In this document: positions 21,633-46,881 of the stretch, one piece after another
Layout of the letters: every line of letters begins with the position of its first letter
Numbering within the stretch: the first letter of the stretch is position 1
IMG/VR virus record: IMGVR_UViG_3300029841_000009
Coordinates: 1 to 64,000 of that record
Origin: a virus
Lineage: Duplodnaviria > Heunggongvirae > Uroviricota > Caudoviricetes
DNA length: 64,000 nt
Reading direction: 5' to 3' (one strand)
Translations under genes and position numbers: made by a program
Notes under the pieces: generated by a model
Databases searched by the model: none
What the model saw: the letters and a program-made list of their open reading frames with translations, nothing else
What the model was told of the DNA's origin: nothing

Positions 21633-21688
21633 TTATATAAATATATAATTCTATATACGGCGGGAGACATCCCGCCGTAGGCTTACTG

Positions 21689-22756: not shown

Positions 22757-22870
22757 CAGATTTCTCCGGTTTAACCAGGGCGGGTATCGCTCGGTTTCGG
22801 GTATAACCTTAGGAAATTTTTTCCCACCTGTAAAGCACTTTTTATATAAATCTATAATTATATATTTATA
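22757..22870 (-). repeat. promoter-leader repeat, copy A (TTTACA-17-TATGGT with shared 5' leader)
   Basis: About 110 bp nearly identical to 32755-32870 and 63334-63449; lies immediately 5' of the 21689..22756 start. Confidence 0.7.
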
Positions 22871-22925
22871 GATTTTCGATGTTCCCGATGTCTACACACC
22901 ATCAAAACAGCTCAAAATGACACTT

Positions 22926-23303: not shown

Positions 23304-23306
23304 TGT

Positions 23307-23639: not shown

Positions 23640-24040
23640 TTGGTATCCCCTGGTACTTCACCAAGACTAAGATCAAACCCAATTTCGTCTTTAACTGACT
23701 GCGGCAACAGCTCCCACGTCTGCGCACACAAAAATTCATCGGTGCCATAACGCTCAACAAAGCGAGCACAATTACTCAGGGGAGGGTGACGAACGGCAAT
23801 ATGCGGAGGCACGCGCCCACCACCAGGCACAACACCGCGATGATGTGGTGCGCACAACCCAAAGCTATGGAAGTGGCAATTCTCATCAACGCTGCCGTAA
23901 TCAGGATCGTGATGTAGCTCCGTCCACAGCTCTGGATTCTCAATTTCACGGCCATCAATAATGCAAGCTATGCAACCCACGTGAGTGAGCACCGCTTGTA
24001 TATAAAGTTTCTCTTTCTTCGTTGGTGTACGTCCGTTCAT
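23636..24040 (-). CDS. Cys/His-rich protein (NinG/HNH-like putative nuclease)
   Basis: 134 aa with CIAC ... HHD ... CHFHSFGLCAPHH metal-binding-like motifs. Confidence 0.35.
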   Translation of the reverse strand: MNGRTPTKKEKLYIQAVLTHVGCIACIIDGREIENPELWTELHHDPDYGSVDENCHFHSFGLCAPHHRGVVPGGGRVPPHIAVRHPPLSNCARFVERYGTDEFLCAQTWELLPQSVKDEIGFDLSLGEVPGDTK

Positions 24041-24273
24041 CAGCGCCCCTTACCATTGATAAAGAGGTTGAACTCGTTGATTAACTGGACATACATGCTT
24101 CTGGCCGCGTAGTTCTTTGCCAGCTCTTTACGGGATGAGATCCCGCAAAACTCACGCAGAATCACAGAGGCCTCAGAACTGTTTGAAACGTTCTTCCCTG
24201 TTTTACTGGTCAGAAAGCGCCAGAATTGGGGATTCTGGCAATGCATCGCAGCACCGCGAACATAACTACTCAT
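24040..24273 (-). CDS. hypothetical protein
   Basis: 77-aa ORF, 4-nt overlaps with both neighbours. Confidence 0.35.
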   Translation of the reverse strand: MSSYVRGAAMHCQNPQFWRFLTSKTGKNVSNSSEASVILREFCGISSRKELAKNYAARSMYVQLINEFNLFINGKGR

Positions 24274-24785
24274 TGATGGCCCCCGTCATTTCTGGTGCTT
24301 TTCACCGTGCGGCTTCTTAAAAACCTGCCATCACGAACAACAGACACTTCTCGTTTACCCAACCTCATTTCACGGCGGTAACATTCAGAAAATGCCTCGT
24401 CCGGCATCATATAAATGCGACGCTTCGCCTCCGTATCCAGAAGGGAACGGCTTGGGGTTACATATAAAAACGACTCATCAATAGGGACAAAACCACGAGC
24501 AAGAATTGCTGGCAGAATGCCAGGAAGAACGCAGAAAACAGCTCCACGATGCAGCAACATCTGGTACTCCATGACCTCCGTTATCCCCGTGACTACTGTT
24601 ACGGTGTCACGTCTGTTACGGCTGGCAACCAGTCGCTGCACACGTCCAATTTTCTGATCTACAGATAGATGTTTGCTATCGTTATCAATATGATCGATAG
24701 CAAATCCTTTAATCGTTTGATCAAGGTAGTGCACCACCTTCGATTGAATCTGGTGATTATCACCAAAGAAGGCCAGAATCATCAT
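24270..24785 (-). CDS. hypothetical early-region protein
   Basis: 171-aa ORF coupled to the Cro-like gene. Confidence 0.4.
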   Translation of the reverse strand: MMILAFFGDNHQIQSKVVHYLDQTIKGFAIDHIDNDSKHLSVDQKIGRVQRLVASRNRRDTVTVVTGITEVMEYQMLLHRGAVFCVLPGILPAILARGFVPIDESFLYVTPSRSLLDTEAKRRIYMMPDEAFSECYRREMRLGKREVSVVRDGRFLRSRTVKSTRNDGGHQ

Positions 24786-25276
24786 TCCTCAAGCCTCCCA
24801 AGTGCTGAACGCCGGGCGTTGCTAATCTCCTTATGAATCAGCTCGATATCGCTGGAATCTTTATTCTTAAGCTCCAGCACGGTAATCGCATCACGAACCT
24901 CTGAAACGGTTACGTGTGAGTGTTTCCAGCGAGCAATGAATCGCGGACCGCGTAGATTGCAACGCTCCGCAGGCATCCCCAACTCAGAGAAAACCGCTTT
25001 CAGCCTTGATAAGCAGTTAACAGGGAGATTCCCTTTGATCTTGTTCTGCCGAACCGATGTGCCATCGCTACGCTGGCGCTGACGTTCGGCAAAATCTGCC
25101 GCCCATTGCTGGACGTTAATCCGGCCTTCCGAATACGCCACCAGCAGCGTCAGGTTATCCGCACGAGGGAATCTCTCGAAGCGATACCAGGCACCAATCA
25201 GTGATGACGTAAAGCCAAACTTTCTGGCAACACCAATTTGGCCTCCATTTTCGTCAACCCACTCCTGAAAGGTCAT
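24782..25276 (-). CDS. Cro/YdaS-like HTH regulator with C-terminal extension
   Basis: 164 aa, divergent from the CI gene; N-terminal helix-turn-helix-like segment (GVARKFGFTSSLIGAWYRFERFP). Confidence 0.5.
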   Translation of the reverse strand: MTFQEWVDENGGQIGVARKFGFTSSLIGAWYRFERFPRADNLTLLVAYSEGRINVQQWAADFAERQRQRSDGTSVRQNKIKGNLPVNCLSRLKAVFSELGMPAERCNLRGPRFIARWKHSHVTVSEVRDAITVLELKNKDSSDIELIHKEISNARRSALGRLEE

Positions 25277-25450: not shown

Positions 25451-26107
25451 ATGAAAAGCAACGACGAGAACATCAAGAAAGAAATAGGTCTGCGCATTCA
25501 GACTCTACGGAAACAATCCGGCATGACTGCCGGAGATCTCCAGCAAGTCACTGGAATAGGCTTAAGCACCTTGCAGAACTATGAGGCCGGATTAAGACAA
25601 CCATCTATACCTGCCATCAAGAAAATCGCGCACGCCCTGAAAGCATCAGCGCCTTATATCGCGTGCTTAACAGATAACCCGTTCCCACCCCAGAATACTA
25701 ACGCTCCTGTTATTCCTGGGCTTGTAGCTATAAAAAATGACATAGCATCGCACGCCGGAGAAAAGCCAGTGCTGGCGATAGAACAGGAGATTCTACGAAG
25801 CAAGAACATCAACCCATCGTCTCTGTCAGTTCTCCAGAGCAACGATGAGTTAATGTCACCAACAATATCCCCTGGCTCCCAAGTCCTGATTGATACAGAC
25901 GATACAGAGATTCATGAGGGGATCTATGCCCTTGAAGACAGAAATGGCCTGGTTGTTTTGAGGCACTGTAGAGTCATACCGGGTGACAATGCTGTTATGC
26001 TGTCAACCGAAAGGGATGCTGAAATGAACACTAAGCATCTGAATAACGAGGAATTTAAGCGTTATAAAGTTCTGGGCCGCGTAGTTAGTGTTGTCAACTG
26101 GTTATGA
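25451..26107 (+). CDS. cI: CI-type repressor (HTH_XRE N-terminal domain plus S24 LexA-like autopeptidase domain)
   Basis: 218 aa; N-terminal HTH (LRKQSGMTAGDLQQVTGIGLSTLQNYEAG), C-terminal Ser/Lys dyad context (LMSPT ... RYKVLGRVV). Confidence 0.8.
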   Translation: MKSNDENIKKEIGLRIQTLRKQSGMTAGDLQQVTGIGLSTLQNYEAGLRQPSIPAIKKIAHALKASAPYIACLTDNPFPPQNTNAPVIPGLVAIKNDIASHAGEKPVLAIEQEILRSKNINPSSLSVLQSNDELMSPTISPGSQVLIDTDDTEIHEGIYALEDRNGLVVLRHCRVIPGDNAVMLSTERDAEMNTKHLNNEEFKRYKVLGRVVSVVNWL

Positions 26108-26577: not shown

Positions 26578-26600
26578 CAAGCGGGCTAACGCCCGCTTAT
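26578..26600 (+). terminator. hairpin terminator
   Basis: AAGCGGGC-TAAC-GCCCGCTT followed by an A/T-rich run. Confidence 0.4.
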
Positions 26601-26705
26601 ATGATTATAGATTTATATAATTATATAAAACGCTTTTCATCCGCCAAAAAGTTGGTTATGCTTACCTCGTTCTATAAATATAGATTTATAGAATTATATA
26701 ACCAA
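26585..26705. repeat. AT-rich iteron-like repeats upstream of parA (candidate centromere / par operator)
   Basis: Repeated TATAGATTTATA(T/G)AATTATATAA units; a further copy lies at 27377-27420 between the two par genes. Confidence 0.45.
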
Positions 26706-26709
26706 ACAC

Positions 26710-27378
26710 ATGGAGTCTCGACAAATGACTATCTCTGTAGGTATTTTCAACGGAAAAGGCGGCGTAACCAAATCAACAATTGCCCGTGCTTTAGCAGTTG
26801 CTTATGCAAAGGCTGGCTGGAATGTATGCCTGATCGATATGGATGTGCTTAACGGAACGGTAACGCGTTGGGTACAACGCAGAATGGCCAACAATATCGA
26901 ACCAGCAATCGCGGCGCAGCCGTGCGGCACACCATCACAAGTCCAGAAAATCATCGAATCAGAAGTATACGACCTGGTTATCGTCGATGGCGGTGCCTAC
27001 GCATCTGAATCAGTACCGAAGCTCTCTGAATTTCTGGATATGGTTATTTTGCCAACCAGATTCTCTACCGATGACCTGGAAACCACCGTTAACACAGCTC
27101 ACGGCATCGTTAAAAAGGGTGTACCAATCAAGAAAATTTGCATGGTGTTTTCCGGCGCGGCTGAAAACGAAGCTGACTATATTGAAGCCCAAGAGTACCT
27201 GGCTAATACGCCATACTTTGTTGTCGATAAGTACATTCCCCACAAGCCAGCTCTGAGCAAAGCTCAGGATAAGGGCTTAAGCCTTATTGAGTGCTCATAC
27301 GTTGCGCCACGCAAAAAGGCAGACGATGTTATCCAGGGGATTATCAATCAGCTTGAGGCTCTGACTACTGCCGCGTAA
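26710..27378 (+). CDS. parA: ParA-family partition ATPase (small type Ib-like)
   Basis: Deviant Walker A GKGGVTKST near the N-terminus, about 220 aa with no N-terminal HTH; the start may be the second ATG (26725) preceded by GGAG. Confidence 0.8.
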   Translation: MESRQMTISVGIFNGKGGVTKSTIARALAVAYAKAGWNVCLIDMDVLNGTVTRWVQRRMANNIEPAIAAQPCGTPSQVQKIIESEVYDLVIVDGGAYASESVPKLSEFLDMVILPTRFSTDDLETTVNTAHGIVKKGVPIKKICMVFSGAAENEADYIEAQEYLANTPYFVVDKYIPHKPALSKAQDKGLSLIECSYVAPRKKADDVIQGIINQLEALTTAA

Positions 27379-27421
27379 TATATAATTATAGTTTTATAGA
27401 TTTATATAAAAGGGGATACAC

Positions 27422-27670
27422 ATGGCCGCACCATCAAAACCACCGAAAAAGAACAGCAAAGGCGTACCGCCATCAATCGAACAACCGCAGGTTTTCGACC
27501 CGACTGAAACGCCGACCAGAACCAAATCAGGTGGGGCACAAATGGCGTTTAACGTCGACCCTGAATTTAAACGCGAGTACAAAACGTTCGCCAGCTCAAT
27601 GGATATGTCATTGAAAGAAGTGCTGACAAAATCTTTTGAGTTACTCAAGGCTCAATACAACCAGAAGTAA
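27422..27670 (+). CDS. ribbon-helix-helix ParG-like partition / centromere-binding protein
   Basis: 82 aa, disordered basic N-terminus then MAFNVDPEFKREYKTFASSMDMSLKEVLTKSF (beta strand plus helices), immediately downstream of parA. Confidence 0.55.
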   Translation: MAAPSKPPKKNSKGVPPSIEQPQVFDPTETPTRTKSGGAQMAFNVDPEFKREYKTFASSMDMSLKEVLTKSFELLKAQYNQK

Positions 27671-27699
27671 GAGAAGGTGACGGCCTCCAGCGCCAACTG

Positions 27700-27882
27700 T
27701 TGGCCGTCGCGACACAACAAGGGGAATTTGTTATGTCCGAGCAACAATATACACGGTTACTGAAAACTCGTCTAACCGACCTCAAACGGCTGCAAGCTGG
27801 TTGCTTATTTGCCCTGCTATCTACCAGGCCAGAATGGGTACGTGAAGCAGTTCTGAAAGGTTTAATGCGCTCCAGCGTTTAA
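27700..27882 (+). CDS. small hypothetical protein
   Basis: 60-aa ORF (likely start MSEQQY) ahead of a strong hairpin. Confidence 0.3.
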   Translation: MAVATQQGEFVMSEQQYTRLLKTRLTDLKRLQAGCLFALLSTRPEWVREAVLKGLMRSSV

Positions 27883-27894
27883 ATTCAACCATAA

Positions 27895-27925
27895 AAAAGG
27901 CCCCCGAAGGGGCCTAATCGCTACT
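27895..27925. terminator. bidirectional hairpin terminator
   Basis: AGGCCCC-GAAG-GGGCCT with an A-run 5' on plus (T-run on minus). Confidence 0.5.
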
Positions 27926-28043
27926 TGCTGCTAATGTTTATCGTCACATTCAGAGCGTTATCAGTAATCTTCCAACCCTCCCCATGTGGCGTAAACAAAG
28001 CTCCAGTAACAACGATAAAAATACACATACAGTATTTTTTCAT
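27921..28043 (-). CDS. small hydrophobic peptide (about 40 aa)
   Basis: Internal Met of track ORF 27921..28103 gives MKKYCMCIFIVVTGALFTPHGEGWKITDNALNVTINISSK; ends at the terminator hairpin. Confidence 0.35.
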   Translation of the reverse strand: MKKYCMCIFIVVTGALFTPHGEGWKITDNALNVTINISSK

Positions 28044-28539
28044 TGTATGGCCCTTACAGGCCGTTTCACGGCATCCCCACCGACGAAAACAACGCGAGAG
28101 CAAGCACGGCTGCTTGTGCTTGCATGTACGGCAACGGAGAATCCTCCCCTAAAGTCGGTGCCCGGGTGCGAATCGGCGGGAAGGTCCACAGGTATTTTAC
28201 GATTATTTTAAGATTAGTTATAGGAAAGAAATTAAACGAAAAAACTCGTTTATTTTCACAAAATCAGTAACCTACCCACAATCTGTGAGTTTGCAGGCAC
28301 AACAAGAACCACAATTTTATGAAGCATAATAGTGGACTATTATTACCTTTTGGGTAAAATTAACTTGCTGCTTGTGCTTGCGTGGTTGTTTATACAACAA
28401 CGTAATGCTGAAAGGACCGCGAATCCGATCAGCACGAAAGAACCGTCCTCAATAGGGCGGTTTTTTTGTTTCTGCCTACCAATAAACCCACACTATGTGG
28501 TTGTCTCTGTTAAAATCCCGCCGTATTGACATAAATGCG

Positions 28540-28640
28540 CCATTGGTGGACACTTTCCGAGCCGTAGCAAAATCTACGGTCGGGATTGGAACCCCGATAA
28601 TCATCATGGCGCATACCGCGTTAGCGGTTTTTTTATGCGT
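28540..28640 (+). ncRNA. candidate structured regulatory RNA upstream of the antirepressor operon (immI/c4-like antisense RNA)
   Basis: ORF-free; successive hairpins (CCGTAG-caaaat-CTACGG; CGGG-ATTGGAA-CCCG) ending in ACCGC-GTTA-GCGGT plus T7; loop ATTGGAA is complementary to the downstream loop GTTCCAAC. Confidence 0.35.
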
Positions 28641-28799
28641 AAAGCACTGCTACACCCAAATTATGGTGGGGCGTGCGGGGGAGTCGTAAGACTCGCCGGA
28701 TTCCATGGTGACCGGTAGTTCCAACCCTGTACGTCTCACCACCCAATGATTGGAACCAGACGGTGGTGAGTATCCTTAACCTTTAAGGGAACTATCACC

Positions 28800-28991
28800 A
28801 TGACAAACCTACCCCATGACTATTACGTCAACCTCGTAAAGATCCTTCTCAAGAAAGCCTCATACGCCGATAAATTCCGCCTGGCTGAAATCATCGAGCG
28901 CGAAGCTATGCGCATCGCCAGCAACGATAACGCTGTTTCTGTCGCAAAAATCTCCCTCGTAACCAAAGTAGTTATGGGAGGTGCAAAATGA
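28800..28991 (+). CDS. small ORF translationally coupled to the antirepressor (icd-like position)
   Basis: 63 aa; stop overlaps the antirepressor ATG. Confidence 0.4.
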   Translation: MTNLPHDYYVNLVKILLKKASYADKFRLAEIIEREAMRIASNDNAVSVAKISLVTKVVMGGAK

Positions 28992-30169
28992 AAACGCTTC
29001 CGACCGTTAACACCCTACAGCCTATCCTGCATAACCAGCTCCCCGTTATCACTACTGAACTACTGGCGCAATTGTATGGAACCGAGCGCCAACGTCTGAC
29101 AAACAATTTCAATAGAAACAAGGAACGTTTTATAGAAGGTAAACACTTTTTTAGGATAGAAGGTAAAGAGTTACGAGAGTTGAAGAACAAAAACTCTTTA
29201 AGAGTTCCTGTGAGAGTAGTTAACGAACCATCTTTAAGAGGGTTACAAATTCCCCCGAAAGTTCGCTCCCTCATCCTCTGGACAGAACGCGGGGCTGCAC
29301 GTCACGCCAAAATGCTTGAAACTAACCAAGCGTGGGATGTGTTCGAACGGCTGGAAGACAGCTACTTCAACCAGAACGCACAAACGGCCGCGACCGTAAC
29401 CGTCTCACCAAACAATGCTCGTGAGGTTGTCGATACGCTCAACGCCAAACCAATGTATTACGTTAAGGTGTGCAACAACGAGCCACTCACAACCTCAGCC
29501 GATGTTGCCCAAGCATTCAGCACCACAAACAATTCCATCGTTATGGCCATCGATGCGTTACGCATTCCTCGCACGGCTGCGGCGCGTCACTTCTTTAAAG
29601 AACAACGACCGCTGGAAGGAAGCGACCGCGAAATAACAATCTATCGCATGACAAAAGACGGATTTACCTTGCTCATGGAAAGTATCGACGGTCCAGGCGT
29701 GAAGGATATCAAGCTGGCCTACATTGAAGCCTTTAACGCTATCAGCAGCGTGTTAAAGGCAGAATACGAGCGAATGCTATACAACCGACTGTATCAGGAA
29801 ACAAAGATTATCCGAACGGCAACAGAACATCATCGGCTATTAACGGAACCAAACTACCGCAAGACACTAATCAAAGAGTTTGACAAGGCGACGGAGAAAA
29901 CTAAAGCGGCACTAAATCTACCAACAATGACTAAAGATGATGTGATATCAGCCTTACTTCTTGATCTGCTCAGAAACGCCAGAGCACTTATCAGTTTTGA
30001 CGAAAACCTGAATCCTCAGCTCAAGCTACTACCACCGACAGGCAAAGTAGTCGACCAAGCAGATCACAACAGCATACTCAGCGTACTGGATGCAAACCTG
30101 CCAGCCAGGACACTACAGGAGCTGATAAAAATATCTGCGGATAAACTGGCCGCAGGTGCAAAACCATAA
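28988..30169 (+). CDS. ant: phage antirepressor (AntA/ORF6N-like N-terminal domain)
   Basis: 393 aa; N-terminal VITTELLAQLYGTERQRLTNNFNRNKERFIEGKHFFRIEGKELREL resembles antirepressor N-domains; sits downstream of the RNA-like region. Confidence 0.55.
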   Translation: MKTLPTVNTLQPILHNQLPVITTELLAQLYGTERQRLTNNFNRNKERFIEGKHFFRIEGKELRELKNKNSLRVPVRVVNEPSLRGLQIPPKVRSLILWTERGAARHAKMLETNQAWDVFERLEDSYFNQNAQTAATVTVSPNNAREVVDTLNAKPMYYVKVCNNEPLTTSADVAQAFSTTNNSIVMAIDALRIPRTAAARHFFKEQRPLEGSDREITIYRMTKDGFTLLMESIDGPGVKDIKLAYIEAFNAISSVLKAEYERMLYNRLYQETKIIRTATEHHRLLTEPNYRKTLIKEFDKATEKTKAALNLPTMTKDDVISALLLDLLRNARALISFDENLNPQLKLLPPTGKVVDQADHNSILSVLDANLPARTLQELIKISADKLAAGAKP

Positions 30170-30203
30170 AACAAAGCGCCCGATTTGGGCGCTTCTTCAA
30201 TTC

Positions 30204-30839
30204 TTAATATTTCGGTGTAATCAGTAGCGATACATGCCCTGATTTGTCACGAGAAACGTAATACTCGCCTCTCTTAGTCTTGAACTCAGCTTTCTGCATA
30301 TCTGATTTAACAATCTGCTCTAACTGCGCAATCACGGTGTCTCTTTCACTTGACGCATCCAAGACTTCAACTGCTACGGCCATAGAAAGCAAGGAATCAG
30401 AGTTAGGCTTGGATACTCGCCATAATAACTCAGAAATCTTCCCATCCTTATCAACTCTAGCCCGACCGTTAACAGATGAGTTGATGGCAAATTCAACGGT
30501 GTTATTACCTTGTTTAACAGACTTAATTCTTATAGTGGAGGTGGCTTTTCCTGATGTAACGATGCCTTCAAGGTCATCATTATATAACTGCTTAAACTTA
30601 TCTACGGTCACACCATCAAAAGCAGCTCCGGTAGTAGCCGCAGTGTTGGAGTCTTCTGGGATCAAGGTCACAGCCGCAAGAGTATTAACAACTACAAAAG
30701 TAGCAATCCCGAGAAAGCCACTCACTAAAACAGCTTTGAACTTACCACCAGAAGACGAGGCACATTGTTTCCGATATGCGCCACGAACTACGAAGAAACA
30801 CAAAATCAGGCTAATAATAAACGCCACCAGCATCCCCAT
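30204..30839 (-). CDS. membrane protein (two N-terminal transmembrane helices), unknown function
   Basis: 211 aa; hydrophobic segments LVAFIISLILCFFVV and VLVSGFLGIATFVVV followed by a soluble domain; convergent with ant. Confidence 0.45.
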   Translation of the reverse strand: MGMLVAFIISLILCFFVVRGAYRKQCASSSGGKFKAVLVSGFLGIATFVVVNTLAAVTLIPEDSNTAATTGAAFDGVTVDKFKQLYNDDLEGIVTSGKATSTIRIKSVKQGNNTVEFAINSSVNGRARVDKDGKISELLWRVSKPNSDSLLSMAVAVEVLDASSERDTVIAQLEQIVKSDMQKAEFKTKRGEYYVSRDKSGHVSLLITPKY

Positions 30840-31399
30840 AGAAATCTCCTTTTAGATATAAGGGTAAAGCAATATCGTATTAGATCTTCCTTAAGACACA
30901 ACCCCCCCTCCCCCCATACAGGGTGCCCTTTACCGGAGTTCCGGCCCCTTCTCAAAAGCATCAAAAAAAGCTCGAGATCGAGTACCGGAACTCATGCCAC
31001 CAGATAGCTCCACATCGTTTCCAATGCTTCGCCGCCGTGTGCGCCCTGTGGCCCACAATCATGCCATTGGTCGTCTGATATACCTTCTTCTGCTCATTGA
31101 GCACAGGCGAGTTGTCGCACTCCTGCCTTTCTCAGACTCGACTTAGTTTAGATCGCTGTTCCTGGCTTGCGTCAGCACACTTTCCCCTTGTACGCATACC
31201 CGCGCGCCACTTCGCCCAAAAACACCGAACCCAACGAAGTAGCAAAGACAACGACGCGAGCGTGAGTCTGAAACGTGCACCAGTAAAAAAGGGGTTGCAG
31301 GCGCAAAAAGATTTGATTATCTTTAGACGCAAGAAAGCCGCCCCAATCAAGAGGTGTCTTTTTAAATCCAGCCTACCAAGCAAGATTTAAATTTCAGAC

Positions 31400-31432
31400 T
31401 GAAAACCGCCCGGCAAGGCGGTTTTTGTCTTT
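31400..31432 (+). terminator. rho-independent terminator
   Basis: AAACCGCC-CGGCAA-GGCGGTTT followed by TTGTCTTT, at the end of an ORF-poor stretch. Confidence 0.45.
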
Positions 31433-31474
31433 CTGGCGCTTACATTACACCACCAGAAAACGATCCGTAAAGGA

Positions 31475-31747
31475 TCATTTGATCCCTTGTTCCAATTCTG
31501 CCGACACTTTAACCTTTTCCCATACAAGGGTTTGCAGCCTTAACAGAATCGCATCTTTATCAAGGTGTGAAAGATCCTTAACCATATCGTCAAACGACAG
31601 AACGCGAATGGCCATCTCAATGACCCTCGGCGGCTCCCCCTTCTCATATCGCTTATATGTAGCCAACGATATCCCAAACTCTTCGGCTGCTCGCTCCTGC
31701 GTCCAGTTCATCCCACGACGCCATAATTTCAATTCGTAACCCGTCAT
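31475..31747 (-). CDS. HTH XRE-family transcriptional regulator
   Basis: 90 aa with LKLWRRGMNWTQERAAEEFGISLATYKRYEKG helix-turn-helix. Confidence 0.55.
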   Translation of the reverse strand: MTGYELKLWRRGMNWTQERAAEEFGISLATYKRYEKGEPPRVIEMAIRVLSFDDMVKDLSHLDKDAILLRLQTLVWEKVKVSAELEQGIK

Positions 31748-31848
31748 TACATCCTCTACCTTTCCCTAGATATTCAATAAATTAGACATAGCCACTCACG
31801 ACAAAATAAGATGTATTAACAATCCAATCTTTAGGCTTTAGGTAAAAA

Positions 31849-32274
31849 ATGAGTTCATCTGCTTTTGTCACCGTGGTCACTGGTGTAAGTGTTTTTGTTC
31901 TAGGCCAACTCATCGTCAAAGGAGCTATTGAGCCTTACATTTCATTCAGGGAACAACTAGGGAAAATATCCAATCTGTTATTATGTAACCAAGCAAAAAT
32001 AGTGAATCCTAGCTCGAACTTAAAGCCAGAAATCATTCATGATCTAAAAGATTCCGCAGCACAGTTAATGGCAAAATATTCCACTTTACCTTTCTATATC
32101 AAAAAGTTACATATCGGCTTTCGTCTTGTTCCATCAGCCACCGAGATTCTTGGGGCAGCTCGAAATTTGAACTATATAGCGTCAATACATGAAGGTAAGA
32201 CTGGGGAGAATCCATCTAAGCATCTCGAAGAGATTGGCCATATGCTCAAAATACCAACTACCTATTCAAGCTAA
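31849..32274 (+). CDS. membrane-anchored hypothetical protein
   Basis: 141 aa; N-terminal transmembrane helix (FVTVVTGVSVFVLGQLIV); divergent from the HTH gene. Confidence 0.4.
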   Translation: MSSSAFVTVVTGVSVFVLGQLIVKGAIEPYISFREQLGKISNLLLCNQAKIVNPSSNLKPEIIHDLKDSAAQLMAKYSTLPFYIKKLHIGFRLVPSATEILGAARNLNYIASIHEGKTGENPSKHLEEIGHMLKIPTTYSS

Positions 32275-32376
32275 CCCAATGTAAGTTATCGGCTTGCCCC
32301 ACAATAAGTTATCTATCTTCAAACGCCCCTATATTAACACTCGCAAAGTGTCAAAATGACACTTTGCGCATTGTGT

Positions 32377-32757
32377 TTACTTAACGAGGAATAAAAATGG
32401 TTTATCGTTCGGCGGTGTACTCGGGGCTGGCTCGCTTTTGCTCATACGATCAGTGTACCAGGCCAGCTCCTTGTCAAAGTAAGCCTGATTAAAATAGGCC
32501 ATGAATGTGGTTTCAAATCCATAACGACCGCTAATACGCAGCATCTGATTGCCGTTCTCTGTTTCCAGATATACCTGGGCACGTTCCTGATTCTCCTTCA
32601 GCCAAGTTAAAGCCTCGTCGCACGAGGACACACGATACTCATCATCGTAGCCGTCATCGATGCGGCTTGAAGAAGAACGGCAAATCACGCCAACAGAACC
32701 AGCCAGGATAGTTTGAATTTTAAGGAAAGCGTTTTTGCGGATTTTAATCATGCTCAT
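32377..32757 (-). CDS. hypothetical protein (cargo of promoter-leader repeat copy B)
   Basis: 126-aa ORF starting right at the repeat. Confidence 0.45.
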   Translation of the reverse strand: MSMIKIRKNAFLKIQTILAGSVGVICRSSSSRIDDGYDDEYRVSSCDEALTWLKENQERAQVYLETENGNQMLRISGRYGFETTFMAYFNQAYFDKELAWYTDRMSKSEPAPSTPPNDKPFLFLVK

Positions 32758-32870
32758 CGGGTTATCTCCGGTTTAACCAGGGCGGGTATCGCTCGGTTTC
32801 GGGTATAACCATAGGAAATTTTTTCCCACCTGTAAAGCACTTTTATATAAATCTATAATTATATAATTCT
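32755..32870 (-). repeat. promoter-leader repeat, copy B
   Basis: Nearly identical to 63334-63449 and about 95 percent to 22757-22870; contains TTTACA-17nt-TATGGT and a GGAGA ribosome-binding site. Confidence 0.7.
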
Positions 32871-32919
32871 ATGAGCACAAAAAAGCCCCTTTGCAACAGG
32901 GGCTTATCATTCGTTCTGA

Positions 32920-33219
32920 TCAGATGTTAAACGCTATTCGTTTTCCTGTGGGAAGCTCAACATCCAGGCTTAATTTGCCTCCCATAGCTTCAACGTAACG
33001 CTTTAATGTCGCCAGCTTTAAATCATTTCCGCGCTGCTCCAGCTTTGTTACTGCTGGCTGGCTTATACCCATCGCCTCAGCAACCTGCTTTTGTGATAAC
33101 TGGAGTTCTTCACGCATCATCTGCAAGCCGACCTCAAGAATCATCTCATCTGCCATTTCTTTAATTCGCGCCTGGCTTTCCGGTAAACGGCTGGCAATCA
33201 CCTCATCTAATGTTCTCAT
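32920..33219 (-). CDS. higA: HigA-like antitoxin (HTH XRE)
   Basis: 99 aa with helix-turn-helix LSQKQVAEAMGISQPAVTKLEQ; immediately downstream of, and coupled to, the toxin gene. Confidence 0.6.
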   Translation of the reverse strand: MRTLDEVIASRLPESQARIKEMADEMILEVGLQMMREELQLSQKQVAEAMGISQPAVTKLEQRGNDLKLATLKRYVEAMGGKLSLDVELPTGKRIAFNI

Positions 33220-33572
33220 TACTTGCTCTCCAGTGTGTTCAGATGTGCTGCAAACTCATCCTCAGCTATACGCACCAGTTTTTTATAAAACCGCTTATCG
33301 TTACTTTTGTCTCCTGCACAAAGAACGATAGCCCGGCGAATCGGATCGAACGCATAAAAGGCTCTTATCGGACGGCCAGAAAACTGAACGCGAAGCTCTT
33401 TCATATTTTTGTACCGAGAACCTTTTACGGTATCGGCATATGGCCTGGGTAACTCAGGTCCGTAAACCTGTAGCTTTTTCAAATCAGCCAAAACCTTTTC
33501 CTGAAGAGCGTCTTCTTGCTCATTTAGCCAGCCGTCAAATCGCTGGCTAAAAAGTACCGTCCACATGCTCAA
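33219..33572 (-). CDS. higB: HigB/RelE-family toxin (Gp49-like addiction module killer)
   Basis: 117 aa; ELRVQFSGRPIRAFYAFDPIRRAIVLCAGDKSNDK matches the conserved core of this toxin family; toxin-first gene order; TATAACCTGT-type palindromes upstream. Confidence 0.65.
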   Translation of the reverse strand: MSMWTVLFSQRFDGWLNEQEDALQEKVLADLKKLQVYGPELPRPYADTVKGSRYKNMKELRVQFSGRPIRAFYAFDPIRRAIVLCAGDKSNDKRFYKKLVRIAEDEFAAHLNTLESK

Positions 33573-33810
33573 TCCTATAACCTGTAGTTTATATCACTAA
33601 CTATATAACCTGTGAGTTATAATTTCAAGAAAAACGGGGCCATTTAACATAATGGACGTTATCGGCACCACCGGATCACCGTTCATTGTCGGATCTAAAA
33701 AATCCGCTCAAAAGATCATGTTTTCCTGGGCGTTTTCCACCGTTTTTTATGTTGCTTATTTGTTAATGAAATCTCGTTTTCAGTTTCGCCTCATTTTCGA
33801 CGCGAAAGCC

Positions 33811-34101
33811 CTATTTTTGTGACTTTACTCCTGGCATATGGACTTCCCAGCGACGAATCCCCATAGCTGCGCAAAAATCAGCCACATAATTCAATCCCGC
33901 CCATTCGCGGATACCACCACGGGCTTTTTCAATGAAAACGGCAATCCCTTTTTTATTGAGAGCAAAAAGCCGCCAGCTTTTTGTCACTTCGTCCTGGGTA
34001 GCCACAACACAAGTGAAAGCTCCCATGCGATACAGGTCCAAGAACTCTTTGCGTGTTTTGCGTACAAGTTCCATAACAAACCTCATATTTGCATGTTTCA
34101 A
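33811..34101 (-). CDS. hypothetical protein (downstream partner of a two-gene module)
   Basis: 96 aa; 4-nt overlap with the upstream gene. Confidence 0.4.
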   Translation of the reverse strand: MKHANMRFVMELVRKTRKEFLDLYRMGAFTCVVATQDEVTKSWRLFALNKKGIAVFIEKARGGIREWAGLNYVADFCAAMGIRRWEVHMPGVKSQK

Positions 34102-34397
34102 ACATCTGTTTTGTTATCAATGAAGATTAACCCTAACCCAGCGAAGTAACACAGCAGCGCCCAGGCTGCATACGGAATGCTGGATCTGGATGTGGACTCC
34201 TTTAACATCTGCCAGTTGCGAACATTGCGACTATCTTTTAAGCCTAGTTTTTTGGCTAACTGCGAGCCGCTCATTCCGGTCAGGCCAATGACTGCCCGAA
34301 CTTCTCCACATGTAGGAGATTCCCATTCATCCGCTTTTTTTAAACAAGCCGGATTCAACATTTTTAAAACAGTATCTTTATCCATAACCATCTCCAT
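34098..34397 (-). CDS. HTH-like protein with C-terminal hydrophobic helix
   Basis: 99 aa; helix-turn-helix-like GLTGMSGSQLAKKLGL and C-terminal transmembrane-like AAWALLCYFAGLGLIF. Confidence 0.4.
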   Translation of the reverse strand: MEMVMDKDTVLKMLNPACLKKADEWESPTCGEVRAVIGLTGMSGSQLAKKLGLKDSRNVRNWQMLKESTSRSSIPYAAWALLCYFAGLGLIFIDNKTDV

Positions 34398-34779
34398 TTA
34401 TTATATCTACGATGATAGGAAATCTTTTCCTATGTGGCAATAGAAATTTACTACATTGCGTATAAGACAAGTTTTCTATGTCTAATAGGAAATGATGTTT
34501 CTTACATTTTATCGCGTTCTGATGGCTACTGTGTGCGTATTTATCGACGTTTATTGATAAGGCTCGCCCCTTCCTCCTGCAAAGCCCGGCCGTAGGCCTT
34601 ATTTCGGCCTTATATAAATTGATTTTGTATAGTTCGAAACGTGCCGTTTCGAAAAGGATGATCAGGCTGCTCCATGCCTCCGGCAAGTGCCGGAGGAGGT
34701 ATATTTGAGCGTAGCGACTCGAACCGGCGCGAGCTTTAGCTCGCTGCAAGGGCGAACATATTCACAGGCAAAGCCTGTG

Positions 34780-35028
34780 TAAGTTAAATAAAGAAAGTCT
34801 TAATAAAAGAAAGTGATTTTGCATTTATTTGTTTAGTGCATCTATTATAAAAAACCATTTGCATATACATATCAGAACTGTGGATAACTTTATTAGCCGA
34901 TGCCTGTAAAGGCGATATTTTTGCTGTGTTCAGGTTTAGAGAAAATTAATTTAGATTGTTTTTTGAACAGATATTTTATTGCGACGTAGATAATCCTCCG
35001 GTAAAACCGGATTCATCATTCAGGTGGG
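34780..35028. other. putative plasmid origin (oriR-like): AT-rich region with a DnaA box downstream of repA
   Basis: TGTGGATAA (DnaA box) at about 34879-34887 roughly 150 bp downstream of the repA stop; AT-rich, ORF-free, several palindromes. Confidence 0.45.
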
Positions 35029-35877
35029 TTAATGTTGGAGTGATTTCCAGGTCTTTCTTAACCTGTTATAACGCTGCTCAACGAGGGATCGTAAATATGC
35101 AAGGTCAGCACCAGGATACATGCCATCAGCAAATTCCTGACTAACCTCTCTGGTGATTTGATGACGAAGTTCGGCCTCTCCCTTTTCCCGAACAAGACGC
35201 GCAGCTCTCTCCGCTGCTTTCTGTTTTGCCTTTATCTCTCTGGCCGTCTTCCTCTGACGCCATACATTCTCCATCTGCTCCTGAATAACAATACGCTTAT
35301 AATCAGCCTCCGTTATCGCTTTTTTAAGCCGTTCGCTATTCTTCGCATTGAAGTAATTAAGTTTCTGGCTAACCGCACGTCTCCATGCTTGTTCAGTAAT
35401 ACCAACGGTTTCCAGCAGTTGATCACGAATCTCTATTTTCGCTGGCCAATACTGTTTATTCACCCGATCCCAGCGACGTTCATAATCAATAAAACCTAAC
35501 GCTTTCAGTTGCGACAACGCCCTTGTACAGCGCGTTATAGACTTGTTCCCAGCTTCGGATACGGTAGACAGGCCGCAAAAATCAGCCAACGCCTCAGCAC
35601 TAGCCAGAACCCGCTTAGAAATGATGTTTACATGGTGCAAAATCGCAGCGATCACAGCATTAATCGCCCGACGACGATGCTCGTTTATCCGGCGCTTCCG
35701 CTCTGACGGTTGATTAACGTAGAACGCAACCTCACACGTAAGATCACGCCCATTAATGCGCTGTAAAGCATCAGATAACACCAGCGGCAGCTTGTGCGTA
35801 TGGTGCTTTGGAGGCTGGAACTCCGGCGACAAATTACAAACGTAAGCTGAACGTAGAGACGGCATTGGTCTATCCAT
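35029..35877 (-). CDS. repA: IncFII-type replication initiator RepA (RepA1-like)
   Basis: 282 aa from the internal Met (MDRPMPSLR); SITRCTRALSQLKALGFIDYE and an Arg/Lys-rich C-terminus closely match R100/R1 RepA1 as recalled from memory. Confidence 0.75.
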   Translation of the reverse strand: MDRPMPSLRSAYVCNLSPEFQPPKHHTHKLPLVLSDALQRINGRDLTCEVAFYVNQPSERKRRINEHRRRAINAVIAAILHHVNIISKRVLASAEALADFCGLSTVSEAGNKSITRCTRALSQLKALGFIDYERRWDRVNKQYWPAKIEIRDQLLETVGITEQAWRRAVSQKLNYFNAKNSERLKKAITEADYKRIVIQEQMENVWRQRKTAREIKAKQKAAERAARLVREKGEAELRHQITREVSQEFADGMYPGADLAYLRSLVEQRYNRLRKTWKSLQH

Positions 35878-35964
35878 ATGTTCGCTCTTGCGTCCACGGA
35901 AAACCAACGTATAATGGGAGTTGTCGAGGCGCCCATGGATTGTTGTTGTTGGTTTTCCGTGGAT

Positions 35965-36005
35965 GTCGCAAGAAGCCCGCAGATTTATCTGCGGGCTTTT
36001 TGTTT
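35965..36005 (+). terminator. rho-independent terminator on the strand antisense to the repA leader (CopA-like antisense RNA 3' end)
   Basis: AAGCCCGCAGA-TTTA-TCTGCGGGCTT followed by TTTTGTTT about 100 nt upstream of the repA start, on the opposite strand. Confidence 0.45.
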
Positions 36006-36372
36006 CCATATCTGGTCACTTTCCAACCAGACACCCACAATCATAACCACGTTACGTGGTTTTAAGAGAACTCTACCACAACACTTTCGGTCATGCACGA
36101 AGTCTCTCACTGATCGAACGATAATCCACCAGTAAAAGGATCTAAATTGGATCTCGTTTTGCGAGCATCATACTACTGGCCTAACTCCAGTCAATGATTC
36201 CCAGCCAGAAACCTGCGGTAAACTCATCGTTCAGCAATATGCTGTCCGGCTTCAAAGATAAGGTGACATCATCCCTTAACAGCGCGGCCAGCTCCGTTAA
36301 AGGGTTGTTTTGACTTAATGCAAAACCGCTAATAAACATATTGGCGGTTTTGTTCCTTAAATCATCTTGCCT

Positions 36373-36948
36373 TTACACTAATTCTGGCCATTCGATATCA
36401 GGGGCATTTTCCGGCTGAACGCGATTCAGTAGCACACGGTATTTTTTCCAGTGTGTCAGGCTTAACTTTTCTTCCTCGGTAGCCATATCTAAATCGACAG
36501 CATCCTGCAGAGTGGCAATAATTTCACCTGCATATGCAATCAGCTCTTTCTTCTGAGAGTCAGCCGCTCTGACAAGCGCATCACGCTCTGCATTCTCATC
36601 ATTCACCCACGCATTGCCGTTCCATTTCTGATAATCCCCCTCCGGGGAAATGGCTGTCACGTCTGGAGGTAATACGCCAAGTTCAGAAATATAAATGGCT
36701 GCTCCCGTTTTCGTTTCATAGACGGTCTTTCCGCGATGGTCTTCCATCAGTTCCCATTTCATTTCATCTGCATTGAAAACGGCTGCATAACCCGCCGGAA
36801 TATCAGGCGGTGCAATATCTGTACTGTTTGCAGGCAGGCCAGTATACGGTGGGATATATGCGTCACTTTCGCCAATAAATTCATTGGTTCCATCAAGTAA
36901 ATTGAAAACGCGGATAGTTTGTGCTTCTGCACTCATTCTGAAAGCCAT
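36373..36948 (-). CDS. tfa: tail fiber assembly protein (lambda Tfa-like chaperone)
   Basis: 191 aa; MAFRMS...NEFIGE...[22 protein letters not shown]...[11 protein letters not shown]...APDIEWP matches lambda Tfa nearly residue for residue in conserved blocks. Confidence 0.85.
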
Positions 36949-39752
36949 TATGCAAGCCTCACAATATAGTTAAATGCGATGTTTTTGACGGTGTTTTCGG
37001 TATTACCCGTAGCATTTACCGTGATGGTGTGTCCGTGCGCACCTAATGCTACAGTGTGTGCATGGGCACCAATACCTACAGTGTGGTTATGCTGACCAAT
37101 ATCCACCGTATGGGCGTGCGCTCCGGCGGTGCTGGACACCTGATTGTTTCCTGAAGCCTGTACACGCTGTTTTCCACCGACAGAGTCGCCGCCATAAACA
37201 CCACCGACAGTGTGCGTATGATTGCCCGTATTGTTCGTTGATTTTGTGCCATGATTAAACGTACTGACCGTCTTCGTGCCGTAATCAAACGAACTGGTTG
37301 TTTTCGTTCCCAAATCCGTATTTGACGCACTGGCACTGTGAGTATGCGATTTAATCCCGTCCTGTTCCTGTGACAATACGGCACGCCCACTGGCGGGTTT
37401 GCCCTTGATTGTCCAGCCGCGCATATCTGGAATAACACCAGAAGGATAGGCTATAGCCAGTTTCGGATATGCTGCCTTATCAAACGTCTGCCCCTGCATA
37501 ATTGCATAGCCCGCAGGTGGTGTATCTGATGGCCACGGCAACGGAACACCTGGCGGAAATGCTTCAATATTTGCCGAGCCGTCAAATTTTACGCCGTTAA
37601 TTGTCCTTGCCGTTTTCAGCTTTGTAGCTGTAGCCGCATTGCCGGACAGTTCACCAGAAAGACCACCGCTGAATGTCTGTTTCGCCGCCCATGTCTGAGC
37701 TTCGTCGATAATTGGCACACGTCTTGTCGTGATCGTGCGGCTTCCCGGATTTCCTGAAATACGCACCATAAAAAAGCGGTAATTCGCTTTACTTACAGTG
37801 CTGCGCCATACATGCATTGAGCGCCCCGTACCGGAATCATCACTCGGACCAACTGCGATGTTTATCAGGTTGCCATCAATGACGCCCCAGTCCATACCGT
37901 CGGGAATGTTGGTCATGTTATCAAGCCGAACGGTTATCAGACTGCCCGGCACAAAGTCGTGGGTCTGCCAGTCCAGGCTGGTGAGCTTTGCCACTGCACC
38001 GCCGATACCCAGATTCAGGGGAAGTGAATACGAGGTGTAGACTTCCCGCCATTCGCTCCATGAGCTGCCGGTAAAAACGCGCTCAAACGTGCGACCTTTA
38101 AGGGTTGTACCTGTTCCGGCAGTTGTATAACGCTGCCATACGTTAACACCATCAAAGCGCCTCAACACTTCCAGAATACCGAGGACTGTCACGCCGTTTC
38201 CGTCCAGTATTGGACCATTGGTCGCTTTACCTGTAACGCTGTAAATACCTGGTGAAGTCACATCATTCAAATCCCCGTCGTAATAACGACTCTCTGACTG
38301 ATGACCGACTCTTAACCACGGTTCCCACTGCGGATTTGATGCATCCCAGCTTGCCGCAAGGCAGCGGACATACATATTTCCACGGCGAGTGGTATAACGT
38401 TGCGTTCTTCCATAATTCCCGCCTTCGAGGATCTCAAGCGTCCCCTGAGCAAAGCCGCCTTCCTCTGGATAATTGCGTTCATATGAAGCTATAGCCGAGC
38501 TACTGTTACGCCATAAACCAAGATGCTCGGCGGCTCCAAGCGTATTCAGGTCTATAGTCGTACTCAAAGGGCGGGTAGCAGATTGAGTGTGACGCCATAC
38601 GCCCCACGGACCATCAGTGCCATTCCACTTACTGGCGAGTTTACGCATGTATACATTGCCGTCTCCCGTGGTAAAGCGTTGAGTACCTGCAAAATTGCCG
38701 GCAGCAAAAACCTCAAGCACACCGACAGCATTATCTTCCGGGAAATTTTTCTCCAGTGTTGCGTTAGTTGAGGTAGCTTTAGACCAGATCCCCAGATAAG
38801 CCTTAACGGGACCAAATGTATTCAGGTCGGCATCAACCGGCATTTCGCCATTGTTTTTCATAAACGTCAGGCTAGTAACGCCAACATTGTCCAGAAAAGC
38901 TGATTTATCCTGGATATCTGCACCGTTCTGATTTTTCGCCAGACGTGAATTTGCGTTGTCATTTGCTGCCTTGACCGCTTTTGGCGTTGCCGCCTGCGTT
39001 TCAGACGTACTGTTAGTGGCACTACTGAGCTGAACAATCCCTTTTCGCGCCGTGGTAGCGTCCTGTGCGGTGTATTTAGCGTTAGCCAGGTCATATGCAG
39101 CCTTAACAGCCTTAGGCGTCGCTGCGAGCTTTTCAGACGTGCTATTGGTGGCATTACTGAGTTGAACAATGCCTTTTGATGTTAAAGTTGCATCAGGATG
39201 ATTACGTGATTGCTCATGTTTTACAATAGCTTGCTTAAGCCGCTTTGCTGAAACAGCCAGGGAATCATCTGTACCTGCATCAATTTCTTGTTCATTAGCA
39301 AATCTTGCTACTCCAACAACAGTTTCGGTTGCGGGAGGGTTAATAAACTCAACATCACCAAATGTAATGTTTTTAGTATCAAGATTTTTAATTGCTATAT
39401 CACTTGATATTAAAGCAATTGTAGAAGATGCTTTATTTATTATTACTTGTTCTTGCGAGTATACAGCAAACAATGTTCCTTTATTTGTATACAAACCTAT
39501 TGTATGGACAACATACTCATCTTTACTATCATCCTTCGCAGTTACATGAATGGTATCAGGAGAAACGACTTTGCCTCCTATTGTGGTAAGTCGCTTTATT
39601 TCATCTGTTATTTTTGTTTGTGTGGTTGATGTGGCATAATATCTACTACCTAAACCAACAGAAACGATCTCAACTTTATTTGTTCCAGTCTTGTTGGCAT
39701 TAACCAGCGCCTTACGCCCGGCGTCAGTCATCGTAAATAATAATTTACTCAC
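36948..39752 (-). CDS. tail fiber protein (receptor-binding)
   Basis: 934 aa; two tandem about 35-aa fiber repeats (GIVQLS[NS][17 protein letters not shown]), three tandem about 80-aa domains, C-terminal HxH-rich region ending [11 protein letters not shown]. Confidence 0.7.
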
Positions 39753-39782
39753 GCTTAATTCCTTGGATTAACAAATCGCAAA

Positions 39783-42879: not shown

Positions 42880-42881
42880 AA

Positions 42882-46876: not shown

Positions 46877-46881
46877 TAGTA

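Follow-up and report, generated by a model that had tools for sequence, protein, structure and literature searches.

The 64,000-nt stretch analysed here, referred to as the window, comprises positions 1 to 64,000 of the Caudoviricetes record IMGVR_UViG_3300029841_000009. Between 26.6 and 36.4 kb it contains genes and RNAs for replication, partition, addiction and immunity, and this block very probably belongs to a widespread family of enterobacterial phage-plasmids of ~47-49 kb. The following features were assigned to its replication module, making use of the related Salmonella replicon pAR-0407-1:

35029-36009, probable gene 35029..35865, (-) strand: repA, initiator of the IncFII superfamily (Pfam, NCBIfam, comparison with pAR-0407-1)
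35922..36012, (+) strand: predicted countertranscript of the repA leader, ~90 nt (folding and conservation in pAR-0407-1)
34760..34887, (-) strand: candidate origin core with a DnaA box, three ATGCA blocks, an AT-rich stretch and a CACAG-N7-CTGTG palindrome

A replicon of the IncFII superfamily

The RepA protein is matched by the Pfam family IncFII_repA (PF02387, 1.3e-43) and by the NCBIfam model NF040977, 'RepA_IncFII_LM', with 231.5 bits against a cutoff of 70. It fails the equivalog model of the classical group, TIGR03474 (incFII_RepA), reaching 78.6 bits against a cutoff of 446.9. By these profile scores it is a member of the IncFII superfamily and of the 'IncFII_LM' subfamily, and not a classical IncFII RepA1. 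Of the original prediction of an IncFII RepA1-like initiator, the superfamily part therefore stands and the RepA1 part does not, CopA also having no Rfam match at E <= 1 in the window.

Both profiles first align at residue ~57 of the 326-aa open reading frame (ORF). The replicon of pAR-0407-1 has 74.5% identity to the window and an annotated RepA of 277 aa; its frame is broken upstream of repA by a 7-nt indel, Met45 is replaced, and Met49 is kept. Because of the broken frame and the conserved Met49, the first 48 codons of the ORF are regarded as leader and not as protein. The true start is probably Met49 at 35865, and the 326-aa form was rejected as the product after this comparison.

On the strand opposite repA, two stem-loops were found at 35,900-36,016 (z = -5.2), the second of which is a strong terminator with a U-run. 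A perfect TATAAT at 35,910-35,915 lies ahead of the predicted countertranscript. In pAR-0407-1 the terminator and the -10 element are identical and the apical part of stem-loop 1 has diverged, and the RNAs of both replicons fold alike, with ~-41 kcal/mol. Copy-control countertranscripts are typical of IncFII and I-complex replicons, and the combination of a conserved terminator with a diverged loop fits such behaviour. Upstream of repA, where CopB or Tap was sought, only a 52-aa remnant ORF (36181-36339) was found. It lies in the gap between the tail-fibre assembly gene and repA (36010-36372), which is occupied by a Hin-type invertase in many relatives.

A DnaA box downstream of RepA had been predicted and is present. 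The single perfect box in the 64 kb, TTATCCACA, is located at 34879-34887 on the (-) strand, 142 nt past the repA stop. Since chance alone would give ~0.5 perfect boxes in a sequence of 64 kb, its weight rests on position and not on count. The offset of 142 nt is kept in pAR-0407-1, where the box reads TTATTCACA, and both boxes fit TTWTNCACA. The ~130 bp after the box are far better conserved between the two replicons than the spacer that follows repA, and on the basis of this block the putative origin core was placed at ~34,760-34,887.

Distribution of the family

At 97-99% identity, the region 26.6-36.4 kb is shared with ~60 E. coli plasmids, which are circular, non-mobilizable and 44-50 kb long, as well as with three Yersinia phage genomes of 49 kb (vB_YpM_39, vB_YpM_41 and vB_YpM_44). 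From 19,671 to 64,000 the window is collinear with a circular relative of 47,288 bp, running from position 30,801 of the latter round to 28,239; this covers 44.3 kb of the 47.3-kb circle at 98-99% identity. The remaining 2.5 kb of the circle are the lysis cassette, which would fall past the right edge of the window. The 40 best-matching records are all plasmids of 39-57 kb, including that of E. coli ATCC 25922.

The repA-ori segment was found in 71 of 5,426 complete E. coli genomes (~1.3%), several ATCC 25922 assemblies among them. It occurs there at 82 places, all 82 on plasmids and none on a chromosome. The exact RepA protein is present in 1,914 collection blocks, on contigs that peak at 20-50 kb and never exceed 200 kb. 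The contig-size profile is the same for the ParB-like protein of the late operon (5,772 blocks, only 2 of them above 200 kb). Among 72,556 plasmid records, 63 contain the replicon DNA, which is restricted to this phage-plasmid family; all are non-mobilizable and ~44-50 kb long.

The family is characterised by a lambda-like head, a P2-like contractile tail and the lack of an integrase, i.e. virion genes and plasmid replication and partition genes are present in one integrase-free element. Of the genes in the window, 51 were tested against a full-length relative, and none of them is truncated or interrupted by a stop. As predicted, no integrase is visible in the 64 kb: tblastn of the window with two tyrosine integrases, Hin, a resolvase and Tn3 TnpA, taken from related loci as queries, gave nothing below E = 0.1. 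The full-length relatives examined carry no integrase or recombinase annotation either. The three Yersinia phages share RepA, ParA and HigB with the window, and their TerL is 100% identical; two partial E. coli phage records have a TerL of 99.8% identity, and in all other matches the identity does not exceed 65%. They were deposited as myophages, and their packaging in particles is taken from the record metadata alone; a literature search found no paper describing them.

We conclude that the family consists of genuine phage-plasmids, i.e. temperate phages that are kept as low-copy plasmids. The predicted plasmid lysogeny is borne out at the level of the family, by the 82 plasmid places and the circular relatives; the present copy, with at least 64 kb and a foreign arm, may be in another state (see below). 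The family lies outside the ten typed phage-plasmid groups. Membership in the SSU5/pSLy3 group or in the P1 group was rejected, these comprising siphoviruses of 72-134 kb or P1-type elements. No paper that describes the family as phage-plasmids was found, also for the ATCC 25922 plasmid and in catalogue listings. The family is thus common, including its occurrence in a quality-control strain, yet under-described; with its modules for replication, copy control, partition, addiction and immunity mapped, it can be recognised and tested.

Variants were observed among the relatives. Three that have the exact RepA (L009, L012 and L014) carry a Tn3-family transposase, a resolvase and a class A beta-lactamase (Tn3-blaTEM) in the cargo region between the helix-turn-helix (HTH) gene and the antirepressor gene. 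Because of these insertions, the family is a vehicle for resistance genes. Two contigs with the exact RepA are hybrids. In L010, a second IncFII_repA gene and VirB-type conjugation genes follow past HigBA, and in L008 lambda-type tail genes (J, Lom, tail fibre) beside repA replace the P2-like tail. The plasmid pN10e (L019, NZ_JBUBMA010000006.1, 16356-41887) has a tandem duplication of ~12.5 kb of head and tail genes, and one ATCC 25922 assembly contains a record of 94,204 bp with two replicon copies (NZ_CP032086.1). Both are probably multimers or assembly artefacts.

Partition genes and a dispersed AT-rich motif

The partition region starts the block and comprises the first four of the following features; the fifth contains the same motif and lies further downstream:

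26710..27378, (+) strand: parA, small ParF-like (type Ib-like) ATPase (Pfam, PHROG, PDB)
27422..27670, (+) strand: gene of the 82-aa ParA partner, candidate centromere-binding adaptor, directly 3' of parA
26597..26709, no strand: array of AT-rich motifs of the TATAGATTTATA type, candidate operator/centromere, around the promoter-like TTGGTT-17-TATAAA upstream of parA
27387..27406, no strand: AT-rich motif, two more copies, between parA and the gene of its partner, position kept in pAR-0407-1
32754..32872, (-) strand: copy of a 119-bp cassette with AT-rich motif, promoter-like TTTACA-17-TATGGT, 5'-UTR, GGAG (Shine-Dalgarno) and ATG

The ParA-type ATPase of the original prediction was confirmed by Pfam (CbiA 1.7e-12, also ParA and MipZ), by PHROG (ParA-like, 2e-39) and by the deviant Walker A motif GKGGVTKST. 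The protein is devoid of an N-terminal HTH. The full ORF encodes 222 aa; in relatives, PGAP places the start at 26725 (217 aa). Its nearest partition relatives of solved structure are small ATPases of the ParF type, with a weak PDB match to ParF of TP228 (E = 3e-4), and it scores under the cutoff of the NCBIfam model NF041546. It is 100% identical to ParA of plasmid L002.

The 82-aa partner has close homologues only and belongs to PHROG 6024 (function unknown). Its predicted identity as a ribbon-helix-helix (RHH) protein or ParG was not confirmed, the searches of Pfam, NCBIfam, PDB and Foldseek being negative, with no Foldseek hit to its structure model. In the AlphaFold model, residues 1-40 are basic and disordered, residues 41-46 are extended, and two helices are formed by residues 47-59 and 62-81 (pLDDT 74-89). 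This modelled topology would be compatible with a ParG-like RHH monomer.

The motif TATAGATTTATA, with one mismatch allowed, occurs 14 times, compared to 0.26 expected occurrences, and is confined to the phage-plasmid part of the window (21626-21655, 22845-22870, 26606-26698, 27387-27406, 32846-32857 and 63425-63452). The sites are located at the parA promoter, in the spacer between parA and the partner gene, and upstream of four leftward genes; there is none in the cI-cro intergenic region. In pAR-0407-1 the motif is found at the same relative positions. Three of the sites belong to 119-bp cassettes of 94-100% identity (22752-22870, 32754-32872 and 63333-63451), with which three genes begin, i.e. 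those for DUF3560, for a 126-aa cargo protein and the first gene of the ParB-like/terminase operon. Together the sites look like the regulon of one DNA-binding protein.

Addiction and immunity modules

Two predicted toxin systems and an immunity region of the P1 immI type were assigned:

33219..33572, (-) strand: HigB-like toxin of the Gp49/RelE-ParE superfamily, upstream of its antitoxin
32920..33219, (-) strand: HigA-like Xre/HTH antitoxin (also Pfam HTH_37)
27893..28189, (-) strand: ryfA/timP-like type I toxin mRNA (Rfam RF00126, 142 bits, gathering score 80)
28548..28634, (+) strand: RNA segment like the c4 a1/b1 target and IsrK (RF01394, 70 bits, threshold 50)
28659..28746, (+) strand: C4-type antisense RNA of the P1/P7 immI type (RF01695, 84 bits, threshold 45)
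28800..28991, (+) strand: 63-aa ORF at the position of P1 icd (PHROG 7886, function unknown)
28988..30169, (+) strand: antirepressor with ORF6N and Rha domains (Pfam ORF6N 2e-21, Phage_pRha 3.8e-12)
25451..26107, (+) strand: CI-like repressor, divergent from the early operon (Pfam HTH_3 4.5e-11)

The HigB/HigA-like pair that had been proposed was recovered with a toxin-first order, a RelE/ParE-type toxin (PF05973, 6.5e-23) and an Xre-HTH antitoxin (HTH_3, 3.9e-10). In the Yersinia phage record the toxin is annotated as higB2. Its Pfam matches do not include HigB proper, and a sequence search of PDB gave none. The ryfA-like RNA, the IsrK and C4 RNAs and the antirepressor were not part of the original prediction. 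The first contains an ORF of 40 codons (28043->27921) with a hydrophobic N-terminus (MKKYCMCIFIVVTGALF...), and ryfA has been identified as the type I toxin gene timP (PMC7667032). For a TimR-like small RNA, a candidate with a complementary seed (17 of 18 nt at 28367-28384) and a terminator at ~28449-28470 was found; it is unsupported beyond the seed, since the duplex energy of the whole RNA is no better than that of shuffles.

A C4 RNA, a small ORF and a coupled antirepressor make up the immI architecture of P1. This architecture is present in the window. The C4 RNA has a perfect 9-nt b2-like complement, GGTGGTGAG, at 28762-28770, just 5' of the 63-aa ORF, as well as 7-nt a-like complements. 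The TGA of the 63-aa ORF overlaps the ATG of the antirepressor gene (ATGA). The match to the IsrK model RF03163 (38 bits) is under its gathering score, and homology of the 63-aa ORF to Icd and of the antirepressor to P1 Ant is unsupported by the Pfam and PHROG searches. The Peptidase_S24 match of the CI-like repressor, at 20 bits, is below the cutoff of 23.3, so that its self-cleavage via RecA is uncertain. To judge from these assignments, induction may proceed mainly through the C4-controlled antirepressor.

Proposed mechanism and points against it

From the assignments above, the following mode of action can be proposed. RepA, starting at about Met49, would initiate theta replication 140-270 bp past the end of repA, at an origin with the DnaA box and the conserved repeats, and the ~90-nt countertranscript against the repA leader would throttle RepA synthesis. 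Its variable apical loop would set the specificity of copy control and incompatibility. The small ParF-like ParA and its 82-aa partner would segregate the plasmid copies, the partner probably binding to the AT-rich sites of the TATAGATTTATA type at the parA promoter. Loss of the element would be penalised by the toxin-first HigB/HigA-type pair and by the ryfA/timP-like type I toxin. Lysogeny would be held by the CI-like repressor, and escape from it gated by the P1-type immI region, in which the C4 RNA would block translation of the small ORF that is coupled to the ORF6N/Rha antirepressor. In the window, this otherwise intact element appears to be joined, at 18,967-18,993 in an Ead/Ea22 gene, to the late region of an epsilon15-like prophage that is unrelated to it. 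The membership of RepA in the IncFII superfamily and the 'IncFII_LM' subfamily is established by the profiles; the remaining steps we infer. As a whole, the scheme is well supported by the assignments of genes and RNAs and by comparative conservation.

Several observations weigh against this interpretation. The functions of replication, partition and the toxins are predicted. The countertranscript has no Rfam match, and two diverged sequences stand behind its structure. A predicted sigma-70 promoter for repA (36194-36167) is not conserved and is deleted in pAR-0407-1; it was discarded. In the window, a leader ORF of 56 codons ends 2 nt past an in-frame ATG; this arrangement, suggestive of coupling to repA, is not conserved in pAR-0407-1 and is not relied on. 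The 82-aa partner has no match to RHH families in Pfam (E <= 10), NCBIfam, a phmmer search of PDB or a PDB profile search. It is the obvious candidate for binding to the TATAGATTTATA sites by analogy with omega of pSM19035, the binding being conjectural. The lysis cassette of the phage-plasmid is outside the window. Finally, no record in any of the collections searched contains the junction of the window, and a molecule of at least 64 kb has no counterpart there; four junction proteins, and the exact junction sequence in species-representative genomes and viral contigs, were looked for without a match.

The foreign left arm and the state of this copy

The left end of the window and its joint to the phage-plasmid were assigned as follows:

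1..18966, (-) strand: foreign late region of an epsilon15/BPP-1-like podophage, matching chromosomal prophages
18967..18993, no strand: recombination joint inside the Ead/Ea22 gene 18796-19443, a switch of parental matches with 27 bp overlap

It had been predicted that the maintenance block lies between two virion modules. Virion genes are indeed present on both sides, but the two modules do not belong to a single element, the left one being foreign and epsilon15-like. This left module encodes TerS, TerL, portal, capsid, a Bbp16 cement protein, a T7 gp14-like core protein and an SLT protein. The prophages that match it have an integrase of their own, e.g. beside guaA, and judged by these matches the left arm (1-~19 kb) is the late region of an integrative podophage, separate from the phage-plasmid. 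A tRNA gene (73 bits) is located in this region at 14841-14914, where a related prophage has an annotated tRNA-Arg. Positions 1-24000 match 3,553 plasmid records at high identity, mostly conjugative E. coli plasmids; some short segment of 1-24000 is very widespread on plasmids.

The epsilon15-like prophages L016 and L018 match 16500-18993 at 99.88%, and the contig L005 matches 18967-21500 at 99.92%. Because the parental matches end at 18,993 and begin at 18,967, respectively, the switch lies within an overlap of 27 bp; placement of the joint at 19,663-19,954 was dropped once these closer parents were available. Another prophage, L017, shares the whole Ead/Ea22 gene at 98.9%, so that the two element types had ~0.5 kb of homology over which to recombine. 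The joint most likely arose by homologous recombination between the phage-plasmid and an epsilon15-like prophage. As the window includes the foreign prophage arm, this copy has at least 64 kb, compared to the family size of ~48 kb. A circle of 48 kb that wraps round inside the 64-kb window was rejected, the self-comparison having revealed no long repeat.

L005 (GCA_958321215.1, contig CATTCA010000026.1, 1-19635), from a draft assembly, has 98.1% identity to the window over 10.3 kb. On this contig, genes for an AntA antirepressor and a lambda-type integrase and the chromosomal genes torS-yccM-gnsA-cspG are linked to the early operon, to the genes for CI and ParA and to the gene of the 82-aa partner. 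By contig coordinates, the chromosome beside torS extends over ~62 kb; the contig ends within the ant gene, before any RepA. From this linkage it follows that derivatives of the phage-plasmid that are tied to chromosomes do exist. An integrase together with a chromosomal flank, the arrangement that would contradict an episomal state, is therefore seen in this relative; no chromosomal gene lies within the window.

The physical state of the copy in the window can be explained in several ways. It is possible, though only tentatively held, that a single homologous crossover at the shared Ead/Ea22 genes has inserted the circular phage-plasmid into a resident epsilon15-like prophage and thereby into the chromosome. 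In that case the maintenance genes would be passengers of a composite prophage, and the 2.5-kb lysis cassette, a second hybrid Ead/Ea22 gene and an arm with DUF1064, P, DnaT, CI and integrase would follow to the right of the window. The left arm is 99.9% identical to integrase-bearing chromosomal prophages, and the phage-plasmid part is collinear around nearly the whole circle, as a single crossover predicts. L005, which is 99.9% identical over 18,967-21,500, ties the same lineage to an integrase and ~62 kb of chromosome near torS, and phage-plasmids integrated beside resident prophages are known from the literature (PMC10879196; PMC11652158). In contrast, none of the 82 places of the replicon in complete E. 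coli genomes is chromosomal, the exact RepA is on no contig above 200 kb in the 1,914 blocks, the tested genes are all intact with plasmid functions undecayed, and no chromosomal gene is visible in the window.

Somewhat less probable, and on balance unlikely, is an episomal cointegrate with a circular (excised or replicating) epsilon15-like genome, i.e. a plasmid of ~88 kb that would be kept by RepA and ParA and would be too large to be packaged as a whole. This would be compatible with the occurrence of the epsilon15-like genome as a circular 'plasmid' record of 41,027 bp in two E. coli strains, and cointegrates of phage-plasmids and phages have been discussed (PMC12977533). Furthermore, 32 of the 1,914 exact-RepA blocks are on contigs of 50-200 kb, which include the hybrids with lambda-like tails, those with a second IncFII_repA and type IV secretion, and Tn3-blaTEM insertions. 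However, the junction is in no database record searched, and the window gives no direct sign of circularity.

That the junction is an assembly chimera, in which a free phage-plasmid of ~48 kb and an epsilon15-like prophage were mis-joined at the shared Ead/Ea22 gene, appears doubtful. The switch between two parents of ~99.9% identity within 27 bp of a repeat-like accessory gene family would be expected for such an artefact, a related repeat of 62 bp occurs twice nearby, and none of the junction proteins occurs among the 153 billion gene positions of one collection. Yet an independent contig, L005, joins the same lineage at the same position to another prophage context, and the ~0.5 kb of Ead/Ea22 homology seen with L017 is ample for RecA recombination.

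Lastly, a cryptic plasmid with defective phage remnants and no viable phage is highly improbable: the partial genomes vB_EcoM-613R2 and vB_EcoM-473R2 were not taken for plasmid prophages in the 2022 preprint with which they were deposited, but the 51 intact genes, the three complete genomes deposited as Yersinia myophages with an identical TerL and the extreme conservation of the family across thousands of assemblies all speak for a phage.

The assignment of 26.6-36.4 kb to the replication, partition, addiction and immunity block of a phage-plasmid family can be extended to a more specific and less likely proposal. The window might show a non-P1 phage-plasmid just after recombination with a resident prophage at Ead/Ea22, and the 82-aa partner might be an omega-like global regulator. 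The former would resolve to 27 bp a concrete route that turns phage-plasmids into integrated or composite prophages. In addition, the dispersed AT-rich sites of the partner would couple plasmid partition to phage gene expression, at the parA promoter, in the parA-partner spacer, and at the promoters of the DUF3560 operon, the cargo gene and the ParB-like/terminase operon. More generally, the fusion, if real, would be an example of how whole modules pass between phage-plasmids and integrative prophages by way of small accessory genes.

Comparison with known systems

The E. coli plasmids NZ_CP009073 (ATCC 25922, 48.5 kb), pN10e, p853EC2 and MS14385 plasmid 5 as well as the phages vB_YpM_39, vB_YpM_41 and vB_YpM_44 belong to the same family as the element of the window. 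They have 97-99.4% identity over 26.6-36.4 kb and share gene order, RepA, ParA, HigBA and virion genes. They differ in the lack of the epsilon15-like late module, in the variable cargo between ant and higA and, in many cases, in a Hin-type invertase before repA, which the window does not have.

P1 and P7 are similar in that they are integrase-free, low-copy plasmid myoviruses with the same immI logic (C4, small ORF, coupled antirepressor) and a Ref-family nuclease. P1 has an iteron-type RepA, a type Ia ParA/ParB-parS system, Cre-lox, Phd-Doc and a genome of ~94 kb. In contrast, the element described here has an IncFII-superfamily RepA with a predicted countertranscript, a ParF-like ParA, HigBA, a timP-like toxin and a size of 48 kb, and its virion genes are unrelated.

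With IncFII (R1/R100), IncL/M and I-complex plasmids the replicon has in common a RepA of PF02387/NF040977, the putative leader countertranscript and a downstream origin that starts with a DnaA box. It differs from classical IncFII in the failed equivalog, the lack of a CopA match and apparently of CopB, the unconserved leader-peptide arrangement and the confinement of the replicon DNA to the family. The partition genes resemble type Ib systems (ParF/ParG of TP228, delta/omega of pSM19035) in the ParA of ~217 aa without an N-terminal DNA-binding domain, the tiny partner 3' of it, modelled with a helical C-terminal part behind a disordered tail, and the repeats upstream of parA. Unlike in type Ib systems, the partner has no detectable RHH homology, and the AT-rich motif is dispersed over at least 6 promoter regions.

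P1-like phage-plasmids beside resident prophages (Pfeifer and Rocha 2024, PMC10879196) are likewise joined to an integrative prophage and have kept replication and partition genes. They belong to another family and were found integrated; for the copy in the window a chromosomal location is one of several candidate states, and the joint could here be placed to 27 bp in Ead/Ea22. Outside the family, the nearest TerL proteins, with 63-65% identity, are those of the Vibrio myophages X29, phi 2, Rostov 7 and vB_VpaM_XM1, which have other hosts and were compared by TerL.

Other genes of the phage-plasmid

The remaining features of the phage-plasmid part are as follows:

19000..25276, (-) strand: early operon (Ref nuclease, DUF1064, DUF3560 and others) with a hypervariable slot at its end
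30204..30839, (-) strand: 211-aa protein with hydrophobic N-terminus, variable cargo gene that is absent from some relatives
31475..31747, (-) strand: 90-aa HTH regulator (Pfam HTH_3 6.1e-7)
33811..34397, (-) strand: two small conserved ORFs of 96 and 99 aa (87 and 95 aa in relatives), the second HTH-like (PGAP)
36373..64000, (-) strand: the phage-plasmid's own late region, all tested genes intact

The hypervariable slot at the end of the early operon holds two Ead/Ea22 genes and DUF7446, and in the family the whole segment from DUF3560 to the holins is a hypervariable accessory slot. The cargo genes had no match to defence systems in PADLOC. The late region encodes a tail fibre and its assembly protein, a P2-like baseplate, sheath and tube, lambda-like head proteins, TerL, three ParB/Srx-like proteins and the start of an MT-A70 protein. 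The proteins with a ParB/Srx N-terminal domain (57582-58172, 59466-60845 and 60839-61462) are encoded upstream of the terminase genes and are unrelated to the ParA system; one of them has a weak methyltransferase match in precomputed annotation, and they may act in packaging, anti-defence or DNA modification. The tip of the tail fibre and the assembly protein differ from those of the relatives, with 60-91% identity.

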